Below, piece after piece: positions 1-11,300 of a stretch of DNA of 64,000 bases. The translations under genes were made by a program, and so were the position numbers. Origin of the DNA: Bacteroidales bacterium (lineage in GTDB: Bacteria > Bacteroidota > Bacteroidia > Bacteroidales > TTA-H9). Positions within the stretch are counted from its first letter, which is position 1. Each line of letters opens with the position of its first letter. The notes beneath the pieces were generated by a model. It searched no databases, was not told the origin of the DNA, and saw only the letters and a program-made list of their open reading frames with translations. Location of the stretch: the NCBI GenBank assembly GCA_030656615.1, contig JAUSOY010000007.1:27814-91813 (forward strand). Direction: 5' to 3'.

Positions 1-468
1 TGCTATATATTCAGCGTCATACTGTGGATGCTCACCATATACAAGAATCAGCCTTTTTTGACCATTATCCTCCAAAGCCTCTACTTCGTGGATAATCTCC
101 ATATCATCGAGCGTTTTTCGTACAGCCTCCTTGTTGGAAGCTCTGAAGCCGCAATACCTGCAATTATTAGTACACTTATTTCCAATGTATAAAGGTGCAA
201 ATAAAACAATGCGATTTCCATAAACTCTTTTTTTGAGTTCACGGGCACCATTTTTTATTTCTTCTATCAGTTCAGGATCAGTTGCATTGATTAAGGTAGC
301 CGTTTCGGCCAGACTGAGTCGTTGTTTTGAAAGGGATTTTGCAATAATATCGCGTACACCTTGTTTATCAGGTGCAGGCCGATTAAGATGTTCCCATATC
401 TCTGCCGCATCAATAAAGGGTTTCATTCGCTGATCCTTTATACGGCATACTTCGGGTGTGAATTTCAT
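1..468 (-). CDS. hydG: [FeFe]-hydrogenase H-cluster radical SAM maturase HydG, 5' part (runs off the window edge)
   Basis: Not in the ORF track. Manual translation from the ATG at 468 gives MKFTPEVCRIKDQRMKPFID...YGNRIVLFAPLYIGNKCTNNCRYCGF...GQKRLILVYGEHP. This has the CxxxCxxC radical SAM motif and the YGNRIVLFAPLY HydG/ThiH signature. Hydrogenase context favours HydG over ThiH. Confidence 0.88.
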   Translation of the reverse strand, partial: MKFTPEVCRIKDQRMKPFIDAAEIWEHLNRPAPDKQGVRDIIAKSLSKQRLSLAETATLINATDPELIEEIKNGARELKKRVYGNRIVLFAPLYIGNKCTNNCRYCGFRASNKEAVRKTLDDMEIIHEVEALEDNGQKRLILVYGEHPQYDAEYIA

Positions 469-2751: not shown

Positions 2752-4737
2752 TTATTGATGTTTTGGAAGGCTAATAGTGAAGGTTGTTCCGGTTGATCCT
2801 TCATCCGGATTGGCGTTAGAATGGACCGATATTTTTCCTTTATGCATTTTAACAATGCCATAAATAAGTGGAAGACCTAAACCAGTTCCTTTACCTACTT
2901 CCTTCGTGGTAAAAAATGGTGTAAATATTTTGTCCAGATTTTCTTTCAAAATTCCTGTACCAGTATCAGAAATAATAAAATTAATCTCTGATGGCGAATC
3001 TGTCAATTCAATAATAATTTCGCCCCCGATTTCCGGCATGGCTTCAATGGCATTTTTGACAAGATTGGTGAGTACCTGCATCATTTGGTCTGCATCAAGC
3101 GAAATGACCGGATGACTAAGGTGAGGATGAAACTGTATACTGATGTTTGAAGGCTTCACCACCGATTCAATACTACGTAGAGTAAGTTCTACAGCATCAA
3201 CATCCGAAAGGTTTACCTGATTTTTTCGGGCAAAATTTAACAAACCACCAACAATTTTACGACATCGTCCGGTCTGTTCTACAATAAGCTCCAAATCATG
3301 CCTTCGGGGATCATCTTCCGGGAATTCGTCAAACAATAAATTAGCATACATGGTGATAACACCAAGAGGATTATTCAATTCGTGAGCAATACCTGCAGAA
3401 AGCTGCCCCATATGAGCCAGCTTTTCACTTTGCATTAGCTGTTGCTTAGCAGAGGCAAGTTTATCATTTGTAATATTTAATTCATGCACCGAATGGTGAA
3501 GTTTTTCAATGGTATGCGGTAAACACATTTCTACCTCGGCAAATCCGTTAATTATAGCAACGGCATGCTCAAAACATGTATCGTAGCCACAAGAACCACA
3601 ATTCAAATGATCATGAGGATTATATTTACCCATTGTATGGAGAACCTTCTCGATATCATCAGGAAGAGGCTGTGGTAGCCTTCGATCCTCAGGAAAATAG
3701 TCTACTGAAAAATCGATATCGCTGTAAAAATCCATATCGGCTTGCCAGGCCTCATTATCAAGGCGGCCAAGTTTATTACGCACATATTTACCCACCTGCG
3801 TTCGACGGGCATATCGGGGTATGCCCTTAGACATACCAGGTCCCATTATACATCCTTTGCAGCATAGCAGCGACAGATGATGGTCAGAAACCACTCCACC
3901 TTCAAATTCACGTATCGCGTCTTTGAAACTTTGACTACCTTCTGCAATAATAATATTACGCTCAGAAATATCTTCACGTATCCCTGCGGTCTGTAATAAT
4001 CCCCTGCTAATCGAGAAAATTGATCCCTTGCCGGAATGAGGCGGATCGAAATCAGTAGGGATGGTATTGCCGGGCGATATTCCTTTTTCTTCAAGCAATT
4101 CTCGTAATTCTCTAAAAGTAATCGCCTCATCCACTTCCTGCGATTCTGCTTTTTTTGCGATACAAGGACCAATAAATACGACTTTTAGTTTATCGCCTTC
4201 CTTTTTTCTCAAAATACGGGTCATGGCAACCATTGGTGAAACAATCGGTGCCAAGCGGGGAGTTAAATTCGGATAGTAATGTTTTATATAATATACGATT
4301 GCCGGACAATCGGATGATATTTCACCCTCACTTTTTCCGGAATTTATAAGTTTACTGTATTCTTTGGCTATCATATCGGCACCAAAAGAAACCTCGGCAA
4401 CAATGCTAAAACCAAGTGCCCTCAACATACCCACCAATTGTTTATGATCTTCAAGTTCAATAAACTCGGCTGGAAAACTTGGTGCCACGATGGCAGCCAC
4501 TTTTTGTCCGGATTCAAGCAGTTCATTAACCTCGTATTTCGATTGTAAAAAGACTTTTGCATTCTGGCTACATACTTTCACACAATTTCCACATCCGATG
4601 CAACGCTGACTCACAACCTGCGCCTGACCATTGATAATCTGTATGGCTTTAACCGGACATTCGCGCACACAGGTATAACACACCCGACACCGGTCCTTGA
4701 TGGTAAATACGAGATCGCTTCTGAAAGATTTACTCAT
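2752..4737 (-). CDS. Sensory [FeFe]-hydrogenase-like domain fused to a histidine kinase (group C1-like)
   Basis: Two 4Fe-4S motifs (CRVCYTCVREC, CIGCGNCVKVC), H-domain motifs APSF, SSDCPA, GPCIAKKAE and CCKGCIMGPG, FeS motif CGSCGYDTC...MC, a coiled coil, then H-box AHELNNPL, NLVKNA, DTGTG, PFFTTK and GTGLGL. Confidence 0.9.
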   Translation of the reverse strand: MSKSFRSDLVFTIKDRCRVCYTCVRECPVKAIQIINGQAQVVSQRCIGCGNCVKVCSQNAKVFLQSKYEVNELLESGQKVAAIVAPSFPAEFIELEDHKQLVGMLRALGFSIVAEVSFGADMIAKEYSKLINSGKSEGEISSDCPAIVYYIKHYYPNLTPRLAPIVSPMVAMTRILRKKEGDKLKVVFIGPCIAKKAESQEVDEAITFRELRELLEEKGISPGNTIPTDFDPPHSGKGSIFSISRGLLQTAGIREDISERNIIIAEGSQSFKDAIREFEGGVVSDHHLSLLCCKGCIMGPGMSKGIPRYARRTQVGKYVRNKLGRLDNEAWQADMDFYSDIDFSVDYFPEDRRLPQPLPDDIEKVLHTMGKYNPHDHLNCGSCGYDTCFEHAVAIINGFAEVEMCLPHTIEKLHHSVHELNITNDKLASAKQQLMQSEKLAHMGQLSAGIAHELNNPLGVITMYANLLFDEFPEDDPRRHDLELIVEQTGRCRKIVGGLLNFARKNQVNLSDVDAVELTLRSIESVVKPSNISIQFHPHLSHPVISLDADQMMQVLTNLVKNAIEAMPEIGGEIIIELTDSPSEINFIISDTGTGILKENLDKIFTPFFTTKEVGKGTGLGLPLIYGIVKMHKGKISVHSNANPDEGSTGTTFTISLPKHQ

Positions 4738-4744
4738 ACAGTAA

Positions 4745-6469
4745 TTATAACAATATATTTCTTTTCGAATAAGAAGTTCTAAAATTCATTACAGGTGAAC
4801 CATCCACTTCCTGCTTTTTAAGTTTGTTCATTAGTTCAGTCAATCCTGGATTTTTATGACTAACCCTGATGGTTTCCTTGTCATCCATTTCGTATATAGC
4901 TTTGGCCCGTGCTTTTATGTCTTTTTCGGAAAGTCCTATCGGTTGTCCACCACCATAAATACATCCACCTTCACAAGCCATAACTTCAATAAACTGCAGA
5001 TCAGAGCGGCCATTGCGTATTTCATTAATCATTTTCCGGGCTTCCGCCAATCCACTTACTACGGCAAAACCAAGCTGGTACCGGCCCATTTTTATAAAAT
5101 ATTCTCTACGGGATGCCGAGGAACGCAATTCATTTATTTTAAGATTATCCATTTCATTCCCCGTAATCATAAAATTCAATGTGCGGATTACGGCCTCAGC
5201 CACTCCACCGGAAACAGCATATAAGCGAGCTGCAGAACTCCGAAGATTATAAGGAGCATCGGTTTGTTCCGGTTCGATATTCTGCATATCAATTCCATAA
5301 AGCTTTATCAAACTGGCCAGTTCACGGGTTGTTAGAACGGCGTCATTGTGGGTTATTCCCCTTAAAGTCATTTCTTCACGCTGAGCTTCGAATTTTTTTG
5401 CCGTGCATGGCATAATAGAAACCGTGAAAAGATTTTCGGGATGAATTTTCTGTTGACGGGCATATGATTCTTTGATAATCTGCCCCATAATCTGCTGAGG
5501 AGACTTTACCGTACTGATATGTGCCAGCATATCCGGATAAAACTCTTCAGCGAATTTTATCCAACCGGGACAACAACTCGAAAACATGGTTGATTTATTA
5601 CCCGATTTTATCGAATCAGAAAGCTGGGATGCTGTTTCGTAAATAGCAGCATCGGCAGCGAACGCCGTTTCGAAAACCTTTGCAAATCCTATTTTTCGTA
5701 ATGCAGCAATTAAAAGTCCGGAAATGTCTTTTCCACTTCTGAAACCAAATTCCTCAGCCAAAGACACCGAAACGGAAGGCGAAAAATGAACATTTACCTG
5801 TAGCGAAGGCTGATGCAAAGCATCCATAACCTTTTTAATATGCGTTTTTTCGTACAAGGCACCCGTAGGACAAACCATAATGCATTGGCCACAATCAACA
5901 CATGTTGATAAATTAAGTCCTTTATTGTATGCCGTTCCTATCACCATGCGATTACCACGTCGTATAAAATCAATGGCAGATACAGAAACCGTTTCATCAC
6001 AAACCCTAACACATCTCCCGCACAGGATACATTTGGCAGGATCACGCAAAATGCTTGGGCTGGCATGATCCTTTTTATGCATATTCTTTTTCCCCGAGAA
6101 ACGTTTTTCGCGAACATTCAAATCGATGGCTAAATCCTGCAATTCGCAGTTACCATTTCGCTCGCAATACAAACATTCATCGGGGTGATTGCTTAGAAGC
6201 AATTCCACTATCTGTTGCCTAGCTTTAATAACGCGCGGAGAATGCGTCTTTATCTTCATCCATTCTTCAACCGGATGCGAGCAGGACGGTATCAAATTAT
6301 TCTTCCCATCAACCTCTACAACACAAATACGACAGGCTCCGGTTGGTGAAAAACCATTCATGTGGCAAAGCGTAGGAACATTCAGTCCGTTACGATTTAG
6401 GCACTCCAGAACCGTTTCACCCTTCTTCGCTATGATTTGCTTATTGTTTACTTCAATATTAAACAGCAT
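4745..6469 (-). CDS. hydA: [FeFe]-hydrogenase HydA/HndD-like subunit (group A3 architecture, atypical active-site surroundings)
   Basis: N-terminal 2Fe-2S, His-ligated 4Fe-4S (HPDECLYCERNGNC) and two 4Fe-4S motifs. H-cluster motifs FSSCCPGW, MPCTAKKFE and EVMACEGGCIYGGGQP. Lies directly downstream of NuoE/NuoF-like genes. Confidence 0.88.
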   Translation of the reverse strand: MLFNIEVNNKQIIAKKGETVLECLNRNGLNVPTLCHMNGFSPTGACRICVVEVDGKNNLIPSCSHPVEEWMKIKTHSPRVIKARQQIVELLLSNHPDECLYCERNGNCELQDLAIDLNVREKRFSGKKNMHKKDHASPSILRDPAKCILCGRCVRVCDETVSVSAIDFIRRGNRMVIGTAYNKGLNLSTCVDCGQCIMVCPTGALYEKTHIKKVMDALHQPSLQVNVHFSPSVSVSLAEEFGFRSGKDISGLLIAALRKIGFAKVFETAFAADAAIYETASQLSDSIKSGNKSTMFSSCCPGWIKFAEEFYPDMLAHISTVKSPQQIMGQIIKESYARQQKIHPENLFTVSIMPCTAKKFEAQREEMTLRGITHNDAVLTTRELASLIKLYGIDMQNIEPEQTDAPYNLRSSAARLYAVSGGVAEAVIRTLNFMITGNEMDNLKINELRSSASRREYFIKMGRYQLGFAVVSGLAEARKMINEIRNGRSDLQFIEVMACEGGCIYGGGQPIGLSEKDIKARAKAIYEMDDKETIRVSHKNPGLTELMNKLKKQEVDGSPVMNFRTSYSKRNILL

Positions 6470-6498: not shown

Positions 6499-8442
6499 TT
6501 AGTGAACACTAATGGCATTAAATTTACAAGCTTCGTAACAAATACCACATCCAATGCACTTATCCTGAACGATAAAATGCGGATTACGCTGAACTCCAAT
6601 AATTGCTGATGTTGGACATTTGCGTGAGCAAATGGTACATCCCGTACATTTATCAGTATGTATATAGAAGGTTTTTAGACCTTTACACACATTTGCACGG
6701 CATTGACGGTCGAAAATGTGTTCTTCAAACTCATCCCGAAAATAACGCAGGGTACTGATAACCGGGTTTGGTGCAGTTTGTCCGAGGCCACAAAGGGAAG
6801 TATCTTGGATTACTTCAGCAAGTTCCTCAAGCATCATGACACCCTTGAATCTTTCAAGACTTTCATGTTTATCGTCGTCGGTCGGTTTTTTAGTTATCGA
6901 TTCCAAAATTTCAAGCATACGACGAGTCCCCTCACGACATGGGATGCATTTTCCGCAACTTTCGTTTTGCAAAAACTTCATAAAAAACTTAGATACGTCT
7001 ACCATACATGTGTTTTCATCCATCAGTACAAGACCGCCAGAACCCATCATGGCATGTTCGCGCTCCAGATTTTCATAATCAATGGGGATATCAAGGCATG
7101 AACTATCCAGACAAGCCCCTGAAGGTCCGCCAATCTGCATCGCTTTGAAATCCTTATAATCCTTTACTCCTCCTGCAATATCATAAATCAGGGTACGAAA
7201 AGTAGTTCCCATTTCCACCTCAATTAAACCCGTGGTCAATGATTTACCACTCAATGCAAAAACCTTCGTTCCCTTGCTGGTTTCTGTTCCCATATTTGTA
7301 AACCACCCGGGACCGTTCTGAACAATGGAAGGCACATTGGCCAGCGTTTCCACATTATTAACAATGGTTGGTTTACCAAAGAGACCTTTTACTGCAGGAT
7401 ATGGAGGTTTTGGTTCAGGAGTACCTCGTTTTCCTTCTATACTATTAATTAAAGCAGTTTCTTCTCCACATACAAAAGCACCCGCTCCAATTTTTATTTG
7501 TAAATAGAAATTAAAACCACTATCGAGGATATTATTTCCAATAAGCCCCATATCCCGGGCTTGCTGAATAGCATTTTCCAGGTTTTTAACAGCAAGCTTA
7601 TATTCCGAACGTATATATACAAAAGCCTGGGAAGCACCAATAGCATATGCAGCTATAGCCATTCCCTCGATGAGTTTATGTGGATCACCTTCAATAAGAG
7701 CTCTATCCATAAAAGCACCAGGATCGCTTTCGTCGGCATTACAAATCAGGTACTTCTGATCGCTTTGCGCGTTTAATGCAATATTCCATTTTTCCCCGGT
7801 AGGAAAACCGCCACCTCCACGACCCCGTAATCCGCTTAACTCTATCATTTGACATATATCAGCAGAAGTATAATTAAGAATGGCTTTTCCAAAAGCCTTA
7901 TAACCATCATATGCAATGTATTCTTCAATACTAAGAGGATCGATGATACCACAATTTTTCAGAACGATACGCTTTTGACGACTAAAAAAATCAATCTGTG
8001 AAATAAATGGTACGCCTTCCCAGGTGACCAGATTATCGGTCTTAAACTGGTAGAGAGAAGCTTCGTGTAATGTATTATTGAAGACGGCATCAAGAAGCCC
8101 AAAGACTTTCTCATGCGTAATGTTACTGAAAGCCAGACGATTTTTTCCCGGAAGCTGAATATCGATCAGTGGTTCAGCAGAGCACAGGCCAATGCATCCG
8201 ACTTCAATAACTTCTGCTTTTATTTTAAATTCATTGAGGTAATTTCTGACCGCTGCGGCCGATTTATGTGCTCCGGCAACAATACCACAAGTTCCGGCAC
8301 CGATGTATATAATTGGTTTCTCAACCCGCAACCTTCGCAGTTGAGATAACTTATCATCGATATAACGGGGATATTCGTTGGTTTCGTTCAAAACCACACT
8401 GCTAATAAGCGGATTTTTTATTTTTCGGGATTCGTGAGACAT
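6499..8442 (-). CDS. hydB: HydB/NuoF-like FMN- and NADH-binding diaphorase subunit
   Basis: Thioredoxin-like N-domain, GRGGGGFPTG, NADESDPGAFMDR, GAGAFVCGEETAL, GGPSG, SCGKCIPCREG, SLCGLG and two C-terminal 4Fe-4S motifs. Confidence 0.92.
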   Translation of the reverse strand: MSHESRKIKNPLISSVVLNETNEYPRYIDDKLSQLRRLRVEKPIIYIGAGTCGIVAGAHKSAAAVRNYLNEFKIKAEVIEVGCIGLCSAEPLIDIQLPGKNRLAFSNITHEKVFGLLDAVFNNTLHEASLYQFKTDNLVTWEGVPFISQIDFFSRQKRIVLKNCGIIDPLSIEEYIAYDGYKAFGKAILNYTSADICQMIELSGLRGRGGGGFPTGEKWNIALNAQSDQKYLICNADESDPGAFMDRALIEGDPHKLIEGMAIAAYAIGASQAFVYIRSEYKLAVKNLENAIQQARDMGLIGNNILDSGFNFYLQIKIGAGAFVCGEETALINSIEGKRGTPEPKPPYPAVKGLFGKPTIVNNVETLANVPSIVQNGPGWFTNMGTETSKGTKVFALSGKSLTTGLIEVEMGTTFRTLIYDIAGGVKDYKDFKAMQIGGPSGACLDSSCLDIPIDYENLEREHAMMGSGGLVLMDENTCMVDVSKFFMKFLQNESCGKCIPCREGTRRMLEILESITKKPTDDDKHESLERFKGVMMLEELAEVIQDTSLCGLGQTAPNPVISTLRYFRDEFEEHIFDRQCRANVCKGLKTFYIHTDKCTGCTICSRKCPTSAIIGVQRNPHFIVQDKCIGCGICYEACKFNAISVH

Positions 8443-8445
8443 GGC

Positions 8446-8907
8446 CTAATCCTCCTGATTTCGAAGTTGATCAATAATGGTCCGCATTTTCTCGGGATTT
8501 ACATTTCCGTGATAATCACCGCCGGTTTCTACCACGGGTGAAAGACTACAAGCTCCCATGCATTGAACTGTTTCCAAACTAAAACTCCCATCACGACTTG
8601 TTTCGCCGGCACTAATTTTCAATTCTTTCACAATCTCAGAAAGCACCTTTCCGGAACCCATCACATGACAAGCAGTGCCGTTGCATACGCGTACGTGGTT
8701 TTTTCCTTGTGGACTAAAACGGAACTGATCATAAAAAGTGGCAATGGAGTAAATACGGGATGTAGGAATCTGCAAATAAACAGCCACCTCATTTACTGCT
8801 TCCTGCGTCAGATAGCCCTGCTCACGCTGTATTTCCTGCAGTATTGATATCAGGGCATCCTTCCCTGCATTGAGAAATCGCTCAAATATTCTGCTGAATT
8901 TATCCAT
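8446..8907 (-). CDS. hydC: HydC/NuoE-like 2Fe-2S subunit
   Basis: LISILQEIQREQGYL, ATFYDQF, CNGTACHV and CMGAC. Confidence 0.92.
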   Translation of the reverse strand: MDKFSRIFERFLNAGKDALISILQEIQREQGYLTQEAVNEVAVYLQIPTSRIYSIATFYDQFRFSPQGKNHVRVCNGTACHVMGSGKVLSEIVKELKISAGETSRDGSFSLETVQCMGACSLSPVVETGGDYHGNVNPEKMRTIIDQLRNQED

Positions 8908-8969: not shown

Positions 8970-9004
8970 GTGTTAGAGAAATAACATTGTTATTTTATTA
9001 ACAA
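8970..9004. promoter_or_regulatory. Two adjacent Rex-type operator palindromes in the divergent promoter region
   Basis: GTGTTAGAGAAATAACAT (8970-8987) and TTGTTATTTTATTAACAA (8987-9004). The second is one mismatch from the clostridial-type Rex box TTGTTAANNNNTTAACAA, and rex is in the locus. Confidence 0.72.
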
Positions 9005-9149
9005 GTAACGATTTTTTGTATCTTTCAACTTTTCAAGCAGATGTACGTACTTTTATGCAAATATATTCAATATACTGCCTTTAATGTACTGATTTATACC
9101 ATAAGAATAAAGGCATTTGCTTATTTTTGACATCAAAATCGCAAGCGGG

Positions 9150-9398
9150 ATGGAAAATAAAACCGAAATAGTTATTTGTCTTGGTAGCAGTTGTTTTTCG
9201 CGCGGAAACAAAACTACTGTCCGTTTAATCGATAACTGGCTAAAAGAAAACCGTTTACGCGATAAAGTGTATTATCATGGCAATCATTGTTTCGCCAATT
9301 GCGATAAAGGTCCTGTACTTAAAATAGACGATACCATTCATCATCATGTGGATGCCGAAAAAGCCATTCAAATTCTTAAAGACTACTTCGGATTATAG
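9150..9398 (+). CDS. Small thioredoxin-like 2Fe-2S protein (HfsA-like)
   Basis: ICLGSSCFSRGN and HCFANCDKGP. First gene of an hfsABC-like arrangement. The ATG at 9150 is preferred over the TTG at 9117. Confidence 0.85.
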   Translation: MENKTEIVICLGSSCFSRGNKTTVRLIDNWLKENRLRDKVYYHGNHCFANCDKGPVLKIDDTIHHHVDAEKAIQILKDYFGL

Positions 9399-9410
9399 AA
9401 AATAATAAAC

Positions 9411-11300
9411 ATGCAAGTAATAGAATTCGATAAAGAGAAATGTAAACTTTGTTATGCCTGTGTCAGGGTTTGTCCTACCAAGGCTATAGCCGTAAAGACC
9501 AATGAGGAATATCCTCAGGTGCTTCATAACCGCTGCATAGGATGTGGGAGCTGTTTATCGGTATGTTCGCCCGAAGCTCTCACTTTCATTGATTCTACCC
9601 TGGAAGTACAAAACCTGCTCAAAAGTGGTGTTGATACCATTGCTATCGTGGCTCCAAGTATTTCAGGGGAATTTCCCGACATCACTGATTACCGGAAATT
9701 CGTGAGCATGATACGCGCTCTGGGATTTAAATATGTTAATGAAGTTTCTTTCGGTGCCGATTTAGTAGCTGCGCAGTATAAAGATTTAATGAGCGATTTC
9801 AAGGGGAAATATTACCTCAGCTCGCTATGCCCGTCGCTTACGGCCTATATTCAATCATTTTACCCAGAACTTACCGAAAATCTTACCCCCATTGTTAACC
9901 CCATGGTAGCCACTGCCAAAGTGGTGCGAAAAAAATACGGAGATCACATAAACGTTGTATATATATGCCCCTGCGTTTCCGCCAAAGATGAGGCGCGCCT
10001 GCATACCGGTGATGGAAGAGTAGAAGCCGTCCTGACATTTACAGAACTTCGAAAAATGTTTGAGGCAGCCGGAATCACAGAACATAATCGCGAATATTCC
10101 GAGTTTGATGGTCCAATCGGTCATCTCGGTTCGCTCTTTCCCATTTCCAACGGTCTTCTTCAAGCGGTCGATCTGGACGAAAGTTTGCTAAATGGAGAAA
10201 TCATCACGATAGAAGGAAAAGAAAACTTTCTGGATGCCATCAAGCAGTTCAGCAAATATACCGAGCGCATTCGCCGGCATTTTAATATCTTTTACTGCGA
10301 TGGCTGCATGATGGGTCCCGGAACCTCTTCGGGTGGCGAAAAATACCTTCGCCGGACACTCGTTACAGAATATGCCAATAAACGGCTTAAAGCTTTCACT
10401 CCCGAAGAATTCGAACGTTCGATGACTGAGTATACGGGGATAGAACTCTCATGCAGTTTCAAACCCAACGATCAACGCATTGCCATGCCACCGGCCGAAA
10501 AGATTGAAGAAATCCTAAAAGTTATCGGTAAACATGGCAGCAATCCTTACCTCGGGTGTGGAGCCTGCGGCTATGAATCATGTCACGAATTTGCTATTGC
10601 TGTAGCTAAAGGTCTTGCAAAGCCAGAAATGTGCCTCACGTATAACCTTCGCAATCAGATAGAATATATACGCACACTCAAGGGCACCAACGAAAAACTG
10701 GCAAAAACGGAATCGGCACTTAAAAACTCCGAAAAAACGGCGAGACGCGAACAGCAAGCCTCTCAGGATGCCAACGAAATCATCACCGCCATGCTTCAGA
10801 AACTACCCTCTGGCGTGGTAATCGTTGATGAACATCTTAAAATTATTCAGGCTAACAAAACTTTTGTAGAAATATTGGGTGAAGATGCCCGTATGATTGA
10901 TGAAGTAATTCCAGGATTGGCCAGTGCCGACCTAAAATCCCTCCTCCCCTATACCTTTTACAATCTGTTTTCATACGTCCTTAAAAATAATGAAAGTATT
11001 ACCAATAAAGACACCAAATACCACGAATCTCTGCTAAACGTATCAATTTTCCCAATAAGACACGGGAAAATTGTCGGGGCGGTCATTCGCGATATGTATG
11101 TACCTGAAGTACGCAAAGAACAAATTCTGTCACGCATCAACGAAGCAATTCATGAAAACCTGAGTATGGTTCAGCAGATTGGCTTCCTTTTAGGCGAAGG
11201 TGCTTCCAAAACTGAACGCATGCTAAACTCCATTATACAAAGTTACCGCCTCGACGAACACAATAAAGATCAGCACAGACTTACTGAAGACGAATCATGA
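9411..11300 (+). CDS. PAS-domain [FeFe]-hydrogenase-like sensor (HfsB/HydS-like, group C)
   Basis: Two 4Fe-4S motifs, H-domain remnants SSLCPS, CPCVSAKDE and YCDGCMMGPG, FeS motif CGACGYESC...MC, a coiled coil, PAS (LPSGVVIVDEHLKIIQAN) and the HfsB-type tail VQQIGFLLGEGASKTE. Confidence 0.87.
   Translation: MQVIEFDKEKCKLCYACVRVCPTKAIAVKTNEEYPQVLHNRCIGCGSCLSVCSPEALTFIDSTLEVQNLLKSGVDTIAIVAPSISGEFPDITDYRKFVSMIRALGFKYVNEVSFGADLVAAQYKDLMSDFKGKYYLSSLCPSLTAYIQSFYPELTENLTPIVNPMVATAKVVRKKYGDHINVVYICPCVSAKDEARLHTGDGRVEAVLTFTELRKMFEAAGITEHNREYSEFDGPIGHLGSLFPISNGLLQAVDLDESLLNGEIITIEGKENFLDAIKQFSKYTERIRRHFNIFYCDGCMMGPGTSSGGEKYLRRTLVTEYANKRLKAFTPEEFERSMTEYTGIELSCSFKPNDQRIAMPPAEKIEEILKVIGKHGSNPYLGCGACGYESCHEFAIAVAKGLAKPEMCLTYNLRNQIEYIRTLKGTNEKLAKTESALKNSEKTARREQQASQDANEIITAMLQKLPSGVVIVDEHLKIIQANKTFVEILGEDARMIDEVIPGLASADLKSLLPYTFYNLFSYVLKNNESITNKDTKYHESLLNVSIFPIRHGKIVGAVIRDMYVPEVRKEQILSRINEAIHENLSMVQQIGFLLGEGASKTERMLNSIIQSYRLDEHNKDQHRLTEDES

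Follow-up and report, generated by a model that had tools for sequence, protein, structure and literature searches.

A Bacteroidales HydABC-type [FeFe]-hydrogenase subunit with a retained H-cluster pocket and an eroded canonical proton path

The locus considered here lies in a 64,000-nucleotide stretch of a Bacteroidales bacterium genome (GenBank assembly GCA_030656615.1, contig JAUSOY010000007.1, positions 27,814 to 91,813 of the forward strand), hereafter the window, and centres on a gene for the H-cluster subunit of an [FeFe]-hydrogenase, which we call hydA* (product HydA*). The gene is third in an operon whose order is conserved in Bacteroidales: hydC-hydB-hydA-hydS::kinase-RR-RR::kinase-rex-hydG (RR, response regulator; HK in Table 1 and below, histidine kinase). 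The initial annotation, made by a model from the letters of the window, did not state the strand of hydA*; its reading frame is open on the minus strand only, and a plus-strand reading of the same interval was ruled out, as it contains many stops. The frame is intact and of the length of its orthologues.

Table 1. Features of the hydA* locus, with positions counted from the first nucleotide of the window
Feature	Position	Strand	Evidence and remarks
hydG, N-terminal part, leaving the window	1..468	minus	TIGR03955 7e-33 over 156 aa; 475-aa full-length orthologues at the same position elsewhere
rex, redox-sensing repressor-type protein, 221 aa	538..1203	minus	PF06971, PF02629
RR::HK, hybrid receiver and histidine kinase, 373 aa	1200..2321	minus	PF00072, PF00512, PF02518; retained across related operons
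Stand-alone response-regulator receiver, 131 aa	2332..2727	minus	PF00072; retained across related operons
hydS::HK, 661 aa: 2x[4Fe-4S], sensory-type H-domain, Fe-S motif, HisKA, HATPase	2752..4737	minus	PF02906 1.7e-44, PF04060, PF00512, PF02518
hydA*, M3-type [FeFe]-hydrogenase H-cluster subunit, canonical proton path eroded	4745..6469	minus	574 aa, ATG start
C-terminal segment of HydA*, CpI H565/H569/Y572 replaced by V, R, Y	4769..4792	minus	residues 560-567
Helix matching CpI E279/E282/R286 (here T, Q, S), then L1 motif with C299 and C300	5561..5656	minus	residues 272-303
hydB, 647-aa NuoF-like FMN/NADH subunit, N-terminal [2Fe-2S], C-terminal 2x[4Fe-4S]	6499..8442	minus	PF01512, PF10589, Fer4
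hydC, 153-aa NuoE-like thioredoxin-type [2Fe-2S] subunit	8446..8907	minus	PF01257 1.3e-49
Tandem pair of 18-bp palindromes, 17-bp offset, within the divergent promoter region; Rex operator candidates	8970..9004		TTGTTA-N6-TAACAA type
Small thioredoxin-like [2Fe-2S] protein encoded at the head of the divergent sensory module	9117..9398	plus	PF01257 5.5e-09
hydS-PAS, 629-aa sensory-type [FeFe]-hydrogenase, C-terminal Fe-S motif, PAS	9411..11300	plus	PF02906 1.6e-37, PF04060, PF13188
PP2C/SpoIIE-type phosphatase, 394 aa	11297..12481	plus	PF07228 1.4e-10

HydA* has the build of a group A subunit of the M3 type. Its H-cluster domain (H-domain, PF02906, 6.8e-82) is preceded by matches to PF13510 ([2Fe-2S]), PF10588 and PF22117/Fer4, and the full M3 N-terminus is present (one [2Fe-2S], a NuoG-type His-ligated [4Fe-4S] and two further [4Fe-4S] sites, with the Cys and His ligands readable in the sequence). 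The protein passes the NCBIfam group A model TIGR02512 (424.3 bits, cut-off 405.95) and scores 678.9 bits against NF040763, the 'NADH-dependent group A6' model, below its curated cut-off of 765. The best PDB chain found by phmmer is that of Thermoanaerobacter kivui (8a6t_A, E 9.7e-150), followed by those of Acetobacterium woodii and Thermotoga maritima, with hydrogenase I of Clostridium pasteurianum (CpI) at about 1e-112; an AlphaFold2 model (predicted local distance difference test score, pLDDT, 82.5) superposes on 8a6t_A, also its closest match by fold, with a template modelling (TM) score of 0.81. No PF04060, PAS, kinase or other signalling domain was found in HydA* in a Pfam scan, and both neighbouring HydS proteins carry such domains.

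The proposal of a bifurcating-type trimer is borne out by the neighbours of hydA*, HydC and a full-length HydB that has both sets of Fe-S cysteines. HydB matches the B subunits of bifurcating enzymes over its full length (PDB 7t2r_B at 2.4e-207, then 7q4v_B, 8a6t_B and 7p5h_B). Among orthologues in the clade defined below by Ser at position 230 (the S230 clade), the cysteines of its 4Fe-4S sites and C-terminal ferredoxin domain are kept in 62/62, the N-terminal C52, C83 and C87 in 57-59 of the 62, and all four cysteines of HydC in 63/63. The maturase HydG is encoded within the operon, and HydE and HydF elsewhere in the genome (3.56 Mb, 96.8% complete). Judged from these genes, we hold with moderate confidence that the H-cluster subunit encoded by hydA* is part of a third HydABC-type hydrogenase of this genome, that is, one of NADH/ferredoxin-linked, bifurcating architecture.

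Residues were assigned from HMMER/phmmer alignments to CpI and, for the C-terminus of CpI, from a separate profile alignment that reaches it. As phmmer pairs residues 207-308 of the query with 207-308 of CpI without a gap, the numbering of the two proteins is identical there, and the CpI residues E279, E282 and R286 correspond to T279, Q282 and S286 in HydA*. These are the substitutions that the initial annotation had read by manual alignment, and its sequence for residues 272-303 matches the translation of the minus strand. At the C-terminus the surface His pair is lost (CpI H565 is V560 and H569 is R564 here; CpI Y572 is retained as Y567), and the position of CpI S320 is occupied by T320. 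What is left of the canonical path in HydA* is thus C299, S319 and E278. Glu, Glu and Arg stand at the 279, 282 and 286 columns in T. kivui HydA1, A. woodii HydA1 and T. maritima HydA.

The surroundings of the H-cluster tell a different story from the path. All four H-cluster cysteines (C300, C355, C499 and C503) are retained in HydA*, as they are in 121/121 nearest sequences, and the second-sphere residues typical of group A around the [2Fe] site are all in place (C299, M353, K358 and M497, with E361), in agreement with the retained cysteines and motifs listed at the outset. The other altered segments named there are likewise real differences: HydA* has S230 and S234 for CpI A230 and R234, and Y417, A418, V419, S420 and A424 for F417, G418, A419, T420 and M424.

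What these substitutions would do can be judged from CpI mutants. Those parts of Duan 2018 available to us give less than 1% of H2-release activity for E279A and E279Q, 0.4-8% for E282Q and about 50% for E282A, 6% for S319A, and 30-90% for R286A and C299D; extra water was not seen in E279A, and proton-path variants became trapped in an H2-dependent intermediate. According to the accessible portion of the Duan 2026 preprint, protons enter CpI through a surface His pair together with S320 and E278, the S320A and H569A variants have strongly decreased activity and large overpotentials, E279A keeps about 0.1%, and the path C299-E279-S319-E282(-R286) with its S320/H569/E278 entry is very conserved across groups A and B. 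HydA* stacks a non-ionisable residue at 279, a blocking Gln at 282, a missing Arg and the absence of both surface His. Since changes that are damaging in CpI are combined here in one natural protein, there is a strong case, by analogy, that the canonical proton route would be non-functional in HydA*.

The erosion characterises a clade and arose in steps. Among HydA* and its 120 best matches (56-82% identity, from Bacteroidales or Lentimicrobiaceae where named), E279 is missing in 110/121, being replaced by Q (41), V (23), L (16), T (14), M (7) and others, and E282 is found in 94, R286 in 107 and S230 in 99. Residues of the [2Fe] site are far more stable in the same set (M353 in 119, K358 in 117, M497 in 121, P231 in 119, S323 in 121, P324 in 119, Q325 in 118). 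Eighty related loci from species-representative genomes were placed in a single-gene FastTree phylogeny from which sequences shorter than 500 aa were excluded. Non-Glu residues occupy position 279 in 63 of the 80, and 79 form one clade (support 0.986) with a common operon, the 80th (L085) being a Dehalococcoidales outgroup. Within it, 13 loci form a canonical sister clade (support 0.955) in which A230 and an unbroken path are found throughout; the remaining loci make up the S230 clade, whose node has a support of only 0.72 and in which Glu279 persists in 2 of 66 tips, the site being occupied by at least nine residues, Leu, Val, Ile and Met among them. The expectation that orthologues at this operon position would share the loss and form a clade of their own thus holds for E279. 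It does not extend to the other positions: loss of E282 is restricted to the subclade of HydA* (with P0002, L020, L021, L037 and L040), R286S occurs in HydA* alone among the 121 sequences, and H569R is rare, being found here and in one other subclade. At the far end of the series, the pocket itself is remodelled (C299S/N/V with M353V/E/S) in L057, L074, L076, L078, L079 and L086.

Even against its 82%-identical relative P0002, the 24-residue segment of HydA* that covers the path is only 46% identical, ranking 14th from the lowest of 551. Nine columns separate 110 eroded sequences from 65 canonical representatives, namely A230S, G412S, T297S, loss of R234, T275 and E279, and positions 398, 418 and 428. 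A search of these columns for ionisable residues newly conserved along a re-routed proton path turned up no new conserved acid or base that marks the eroded clade. Across an order-wide sample of 401 genomes, 266 have a match at E <= 1e-100 and 144 have one of at least 46% identity, the level of the operon clade, whatever residue they carry at 279.

Changes at individual sites were counted by the Fitch method over 66 tips of the S230 clade and 365 H-domain sites, the median being 11 changes. Site 279 has changed 14 times, near the median (61st percentile), as has site 564, the equivalent of CpI H569 (14 changes, 61st percentile); site 320 (27 changes, 95th percentile) and site 560, the equivalent of H565 (36 changes, 100th percentile), are faster. 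At the other extreme, C300, C355, C499, C503, S323, P324 and E361 have not changed at all (7th percentile), S230 has changed once (10th percentile), K358, M497 and E278 three times each (17th percentile) and M353 four times (20th percentile). Ratios of nonsynonymous to synonymous substitution rates (dN/dS, Nei-Gojobori) were obtained from 5 of 11 pairs of eroded loci, the other six being saturated at synonymous sites, and from 4 canonical pairs. They are 0.036-0.090 for hydA in the eroded pairs, 0.027-0.088 for HydB in the same pairs and 0.036-0.074 for hydA in the canonical pairs; for the H-domain alone they are 0.05-0.12 and 0.065-0.10 in eroded and canonical pairs, respectively. Proton-path sites that are free to vary, in a protein that is otherwise constrained along with its partners, indicate at the sequence level that HydA* and its partners are functional and that the release is specific to the proton path.

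These observations bear directly on the possibility that HydA* lacks the [2Fe] subcluster altogether, either serving as an Fe-S wire or scaffold, in which case HydA*BC would be an NADH:ferredoxin oxidoreductase, or being encoded by a decaying gene. Loss of catalytic residues is the expected first step of such a course, and some nearby 50%-identity representatives have lost K358, M353 and C299 with the four cysteines retained. Yet the 121 nearest sequences conserve residues that serve only the [2Fe] site, hydG lies within the operon, and the intact frame of orthologous length has a low H-domain dN/dS in its clade, which together make this reading very improbable. Decay private to this genome was rejected because the loss is clade-wide and dN/dS is low. 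The term 'pseudo-hydrogenase' used in the initial annotation therefore goes too far for a protein that retains the group-A second sphere and whose H-domain is under purifying selection.

Degenerate HydA-like subunits appear to be widespread outside this clade: among the 50%-identity representatives, P0123, P0125-P0131 and P0143-P0176 (44-50% identity, M3 length) retain the four cysteines and have lost C299, M353 and often K358. The top representative match, P0122, is a protein of 4122 aa with seven H-domain stretches, either a giant fusion or an artefact of gene calling or assembly.

HydA* is not the only hydrogenase of its genome, which has six H-domain genes. Two of these, located on a different contig, encode canonical HydA paralogues with the full path, APAVR, a motif of the IFG.TGGVMEA type and the C-terminal His pair. 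Extra copies are the rule where the operon HydA is eroded: of 16 such genomes, 15 have one or more further HydA that score as canonical, and a type of about 590 aa is likewise found in 15 of the 16, the exception being a 1.6-Mb bin; the signatures of the extra copies that were checked are canonical. Where the operon HydA is canonical, 7 of 13 genomes have another HydA and none of the 13 has the ~590-aa type. Both S230 genomes checked that retain E279 carry it. This pattern fits erosion after a second bifurcating hydrogenase had taken over the flux, as far as gene content can tell. The canonical paralogue of about 596 aa (L001, at C89:11399-13189 of the window genome; relatives L087-L091) has a feature of its own, a Ser at the CpI C300 column in a TSCSPGW-type L1 motif; A. 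woodii HydA1 likewise has Ser at this column, and the partner HydB of the ~596-aa paralogue is only 387 aa long.

On this evidence, the reading that we favour, at about an even chance, is that HydA* is a functional, H-cluster-bearing and proton-throttled subunit of a third HydABC isoenzyme. The protein would still bind the H-cluster and could bind and split H2, exchanging protons slowly; turnover by the normal route, extrapolated from the CpI variants, might be some two to three orders of magnitude lower. HydA*BC would then be a low-flux isoenzyme, with the bulk of H2 flux passing through the canonical paralogues. Its expression would probably be set by the NADH/NAD+ ratio via Rex, and by H2 via both the HydS::kinase phosphorelay and the divergently encoded HydS-PAS/PP2C module; the kinase presumably senses H2 with its own H-domain rather than via HydA*.

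Several points weigh against this. That HydA* would be slow is an extrapolation from CpI and HydA1 variants, and the turnover of a bifurcating complex may be limited elsewhere, so that the physiological cost of a damaged path may be small. The dN/dS values come from relatives, hydA* itself being saturated against its nearest relative at the DNA level. The correlation with paralogues may reflect one ancestral event, genome completeness being established for the window genome alone. Most S230 tips retain E282 (55/66), R286 (61/66) and H569 (45/66), as well as E278, which would be odd if the path were unused and leaves room for a water-bridged route past 279; Thr279, being small and polar, might admit water.

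HydA* could accordingly be a normally fast enzyme with another proton route, either such a water chain or a route starting from S230. Alternative pathways have been proposed for TmHydS and TamHydS, and A230S became fixed (one change over 66 tips) before E279 was lost. The persistence of E282, R286, E278 and H569 in most members would suit such a route, as would the fixation in a large subclade (32/66 tips) of C299D, a change that leaves much of the activity in CpI (30-90%). A route through 279, however, would hardly tolerate the range of residues found there, hydrophobic ones included, and is unlikely for that reason. No ionisable residue has become newly conserved as a mark of the clade, the subclade of HydA* has lost the outer residues too, and the equivalents of S320 and H565 are among the fastest sites of the H-domain. 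We consider fast turnover by another route distinctly unlikely.

The large subclade just mentioned is Lentimicrobium-like (for example L038, L042 and L058) and combines Leu279 with Asp at the C299 column of HydA, the residue that the co-encoded HydS::HK has at the same column.

This kinase was named in the initial annotation as a possible receiver of a redox signal from HydA*, and its start does lie 7 nt beyond the hydA* stop. It carries an H-cluster domain of its own with all four ligand cysteines, on which that annotation was silent, and would thus be able to sense H2 without HydA. Its pocket is sensory in type, with D, G, L, Y and A at the CpI columns 299, 353, 497, 279 and 319. The Asp at the first of these belongs to a D143-C144-P145 motif that is invariant in 47/47 aligned orthologues. 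C299D is a named exception to the stronger losses seen nearer the H-cluster in CpI, in the part of Duan 2018 at hand; by this analogy HydS::HK may keep a bridgehead proton relay even though the rest of the path is gone. Where enough downstream sequence was available, HydS::HK adjoins hydA in 11 of 13 loci with E279 and in 46 of 58 loci without it. At L078:2720-6724 and L086:9001-13033 hydS::HK has been lost, and the receiver, hybrid kinase and rex genes come immediately after hydA (N299, E353, Q279; dN/dS 0.09).

The abundance of signalling genes raises a further possibility, that HydA*BC is now a regulatory hydrogenase which splits H2 slowly, weighs H2 against the NADH and ferredoxin pools via HydB and HydC and passes a signal to HydS::kinase, the receiver and the hybrid kinase. 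Such a system would parallel the [NiFe] regulatory hydrogenases. Signalling genes dominate the operon, canonical paralogues in the same genomes can carry the flux, and the two loci without hydS::HK place a remodelled hydA* right before the receiver, hybrid kinase and rex genes. The trend within the clade, from a canonical pocket through loss of the path to a remodelled C299/M353 pocket with dN/dS still at 0.036-0.090, points the same way, the remodelled positions resembling those of group C/D sensors in the accessible part of Land 2020, and the H2-dependent trapped state of CpI path variants is sensor-like (Duan 2018, available part). The pocket of HydA* itself, however, is of the catalytic type at C299, M353, K358 and M497, and PAS, PF04060 and other signalling domains are missing from the protein. 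The kinase, equipped with an H-domain of its own, accompanies a fully canonical HydA in the sister clade, and any contact between HydA* and the kinase is purely hypothetical. We regard a regulatory role for HydA*BC as possible, if tentative. Its broadest form appears a shade less probable still: the whole Bacteroidales lineage would have turned HydABC into a regulatory hydrogenase with a prototypical pocket and a shut proton exit, whose long-lived, H2-set redox state would feed the phosphorelay. If that is so, group A would have its first sensor, one that marks a natural halfway stage in the passage from catalytic to sensory [FeFe]-hydrogenases.

The paired palindromes upstream of hydC also bear on this question. 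A TTGTTA-N6-TAACAA box (at most one mismatch) is found upstream of hydC at 49 of 69 related loci, where it is usually paired, and at none of the 10 canonical-clade loci, which are without rex; the rex gene itself is found in S230-clade operons and missing at all 13 canonical-clade loci. Perfect sites number only four in the 3.56-Mb genome, and hydrogenase loci account for two; the other hydrogenase cluster has two more that deviate by one mismatch. Outside the window, boxes of this type lie at C89:15084, 15126 and 19157 of the same genome. The classical Rex consensus, allowed up to three mismatches, matches 32 times in the window against 44 expected, and is uninformative here. Because the boxes co-occur with rex and resemble the Rex consensus, we infer that the palindromes are Rex operators, in a candidate Bacteroidales form. 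If so, all three HydABC-type loci would answer to NADH/NAD+, and this shared putative control, common to the other hydrogenase loci, fits a metabolic HydA*BC no less well than a sensory one.

Comparison with known systems helps to place HydA*. The three HydABC complexes with solved structures, those of T. kivui (HydA1, 8A6T), A. woodii (7Q4V/8A5E) and T. maritima (7P5H), are like HydA* in domain order, length and adjacent HydB and HydC, and share with it all Fe-S and H-cluster ligands. They differ in having Glu/Glu/Arg where HydA* has Thr/Gln/Ser, A230S and R234S being further differences, and those of T. kivui and A. woodii have His at the CpI 569 column, occupied by Arg in HydA*. The CpI variants (E279A/Q, E282Q, R286A, H569A and S320A) concern the same positions, HydA* having a natural E282Q and a non-ionisable 279; those variants are single laboratory mutations with measured activities, whereas HydA* combines several that are fixed in a lineage under purifying selection and is known from its sequence alone. 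The group C/D enzymes TmHydS and TamHydS likewise lack the canonical path and lie beside group A and signalling genes, as described in the accessible parts of Land 2020 and Chongdar 2023. They replace C299, M353 and M497 and have an Fe-S motif at the C-terminus, either alone or with PAS, neither of which is true of HydA*, and HydA* differs from them also in its M3 N-terminus, its HydB/HydC partners and its position inside group A. Group C-like proteins do flank it on both sides in the form of HydS::HK and HydS-PAS, the latter having L at the 299 column, C at 353 (G353 in most orthologues), A at 358 and F at 497. By these comparisons HydA* is for the most part a group A3 HydA that fails one supposedly conserved feature, the proton path, and not a group C/D sensor.

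Two further group A enzymes deserve mention. C. pasteurianum CpII, which is uptake-biased and evolves H2 slowly, has Ser at the CpI A230 position like HydA* (Therien 2017, accessible part); according to the same portion, it differs from CpI at A230, I268 and M353, the last of which HydA* retains. The subunit responsible for catalysis in the group A3 HydABC-type enzyme of Bacteroides thetaiotaomicron showed low activity after semisynthetic maturation and very little transcription, at 3.5 transcripts per million (TPM), according to what was available of Welsh 2025. That enzyme is also of the Bacteroidales HydABC type, and may or may not be related to the S230 clade.

In the field, the C299-E279-S319-E282 path counts as a hallmark strictly conserved in group A, and its absence as part of the explanation for the low activity of other groups. 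In full-text searches of literature open without subscription, we came across no account of E279 being absent from a lineage of group A or HydABC enzymes. Public records label these proteins as ordinary group A hydrogenases, so that their annotation could be improved, and counts of 'A3 hydrogenase' genes in metagenomes may not equal H2-producing capacity. Here a natural group A lineage under purifying selection retains the prototypical pocket while its buried Glu drifts. With the loss running through the lineage, its members probably work slowly or in regulation. They also provide a natural series of variants, from canonical through loss of E279 and then of E282, R286 and H569 to a remodelled C299/M353 pocket, which could separate the effects of the proton path from those of the pocket and show how sensory hydrogenases may arise.

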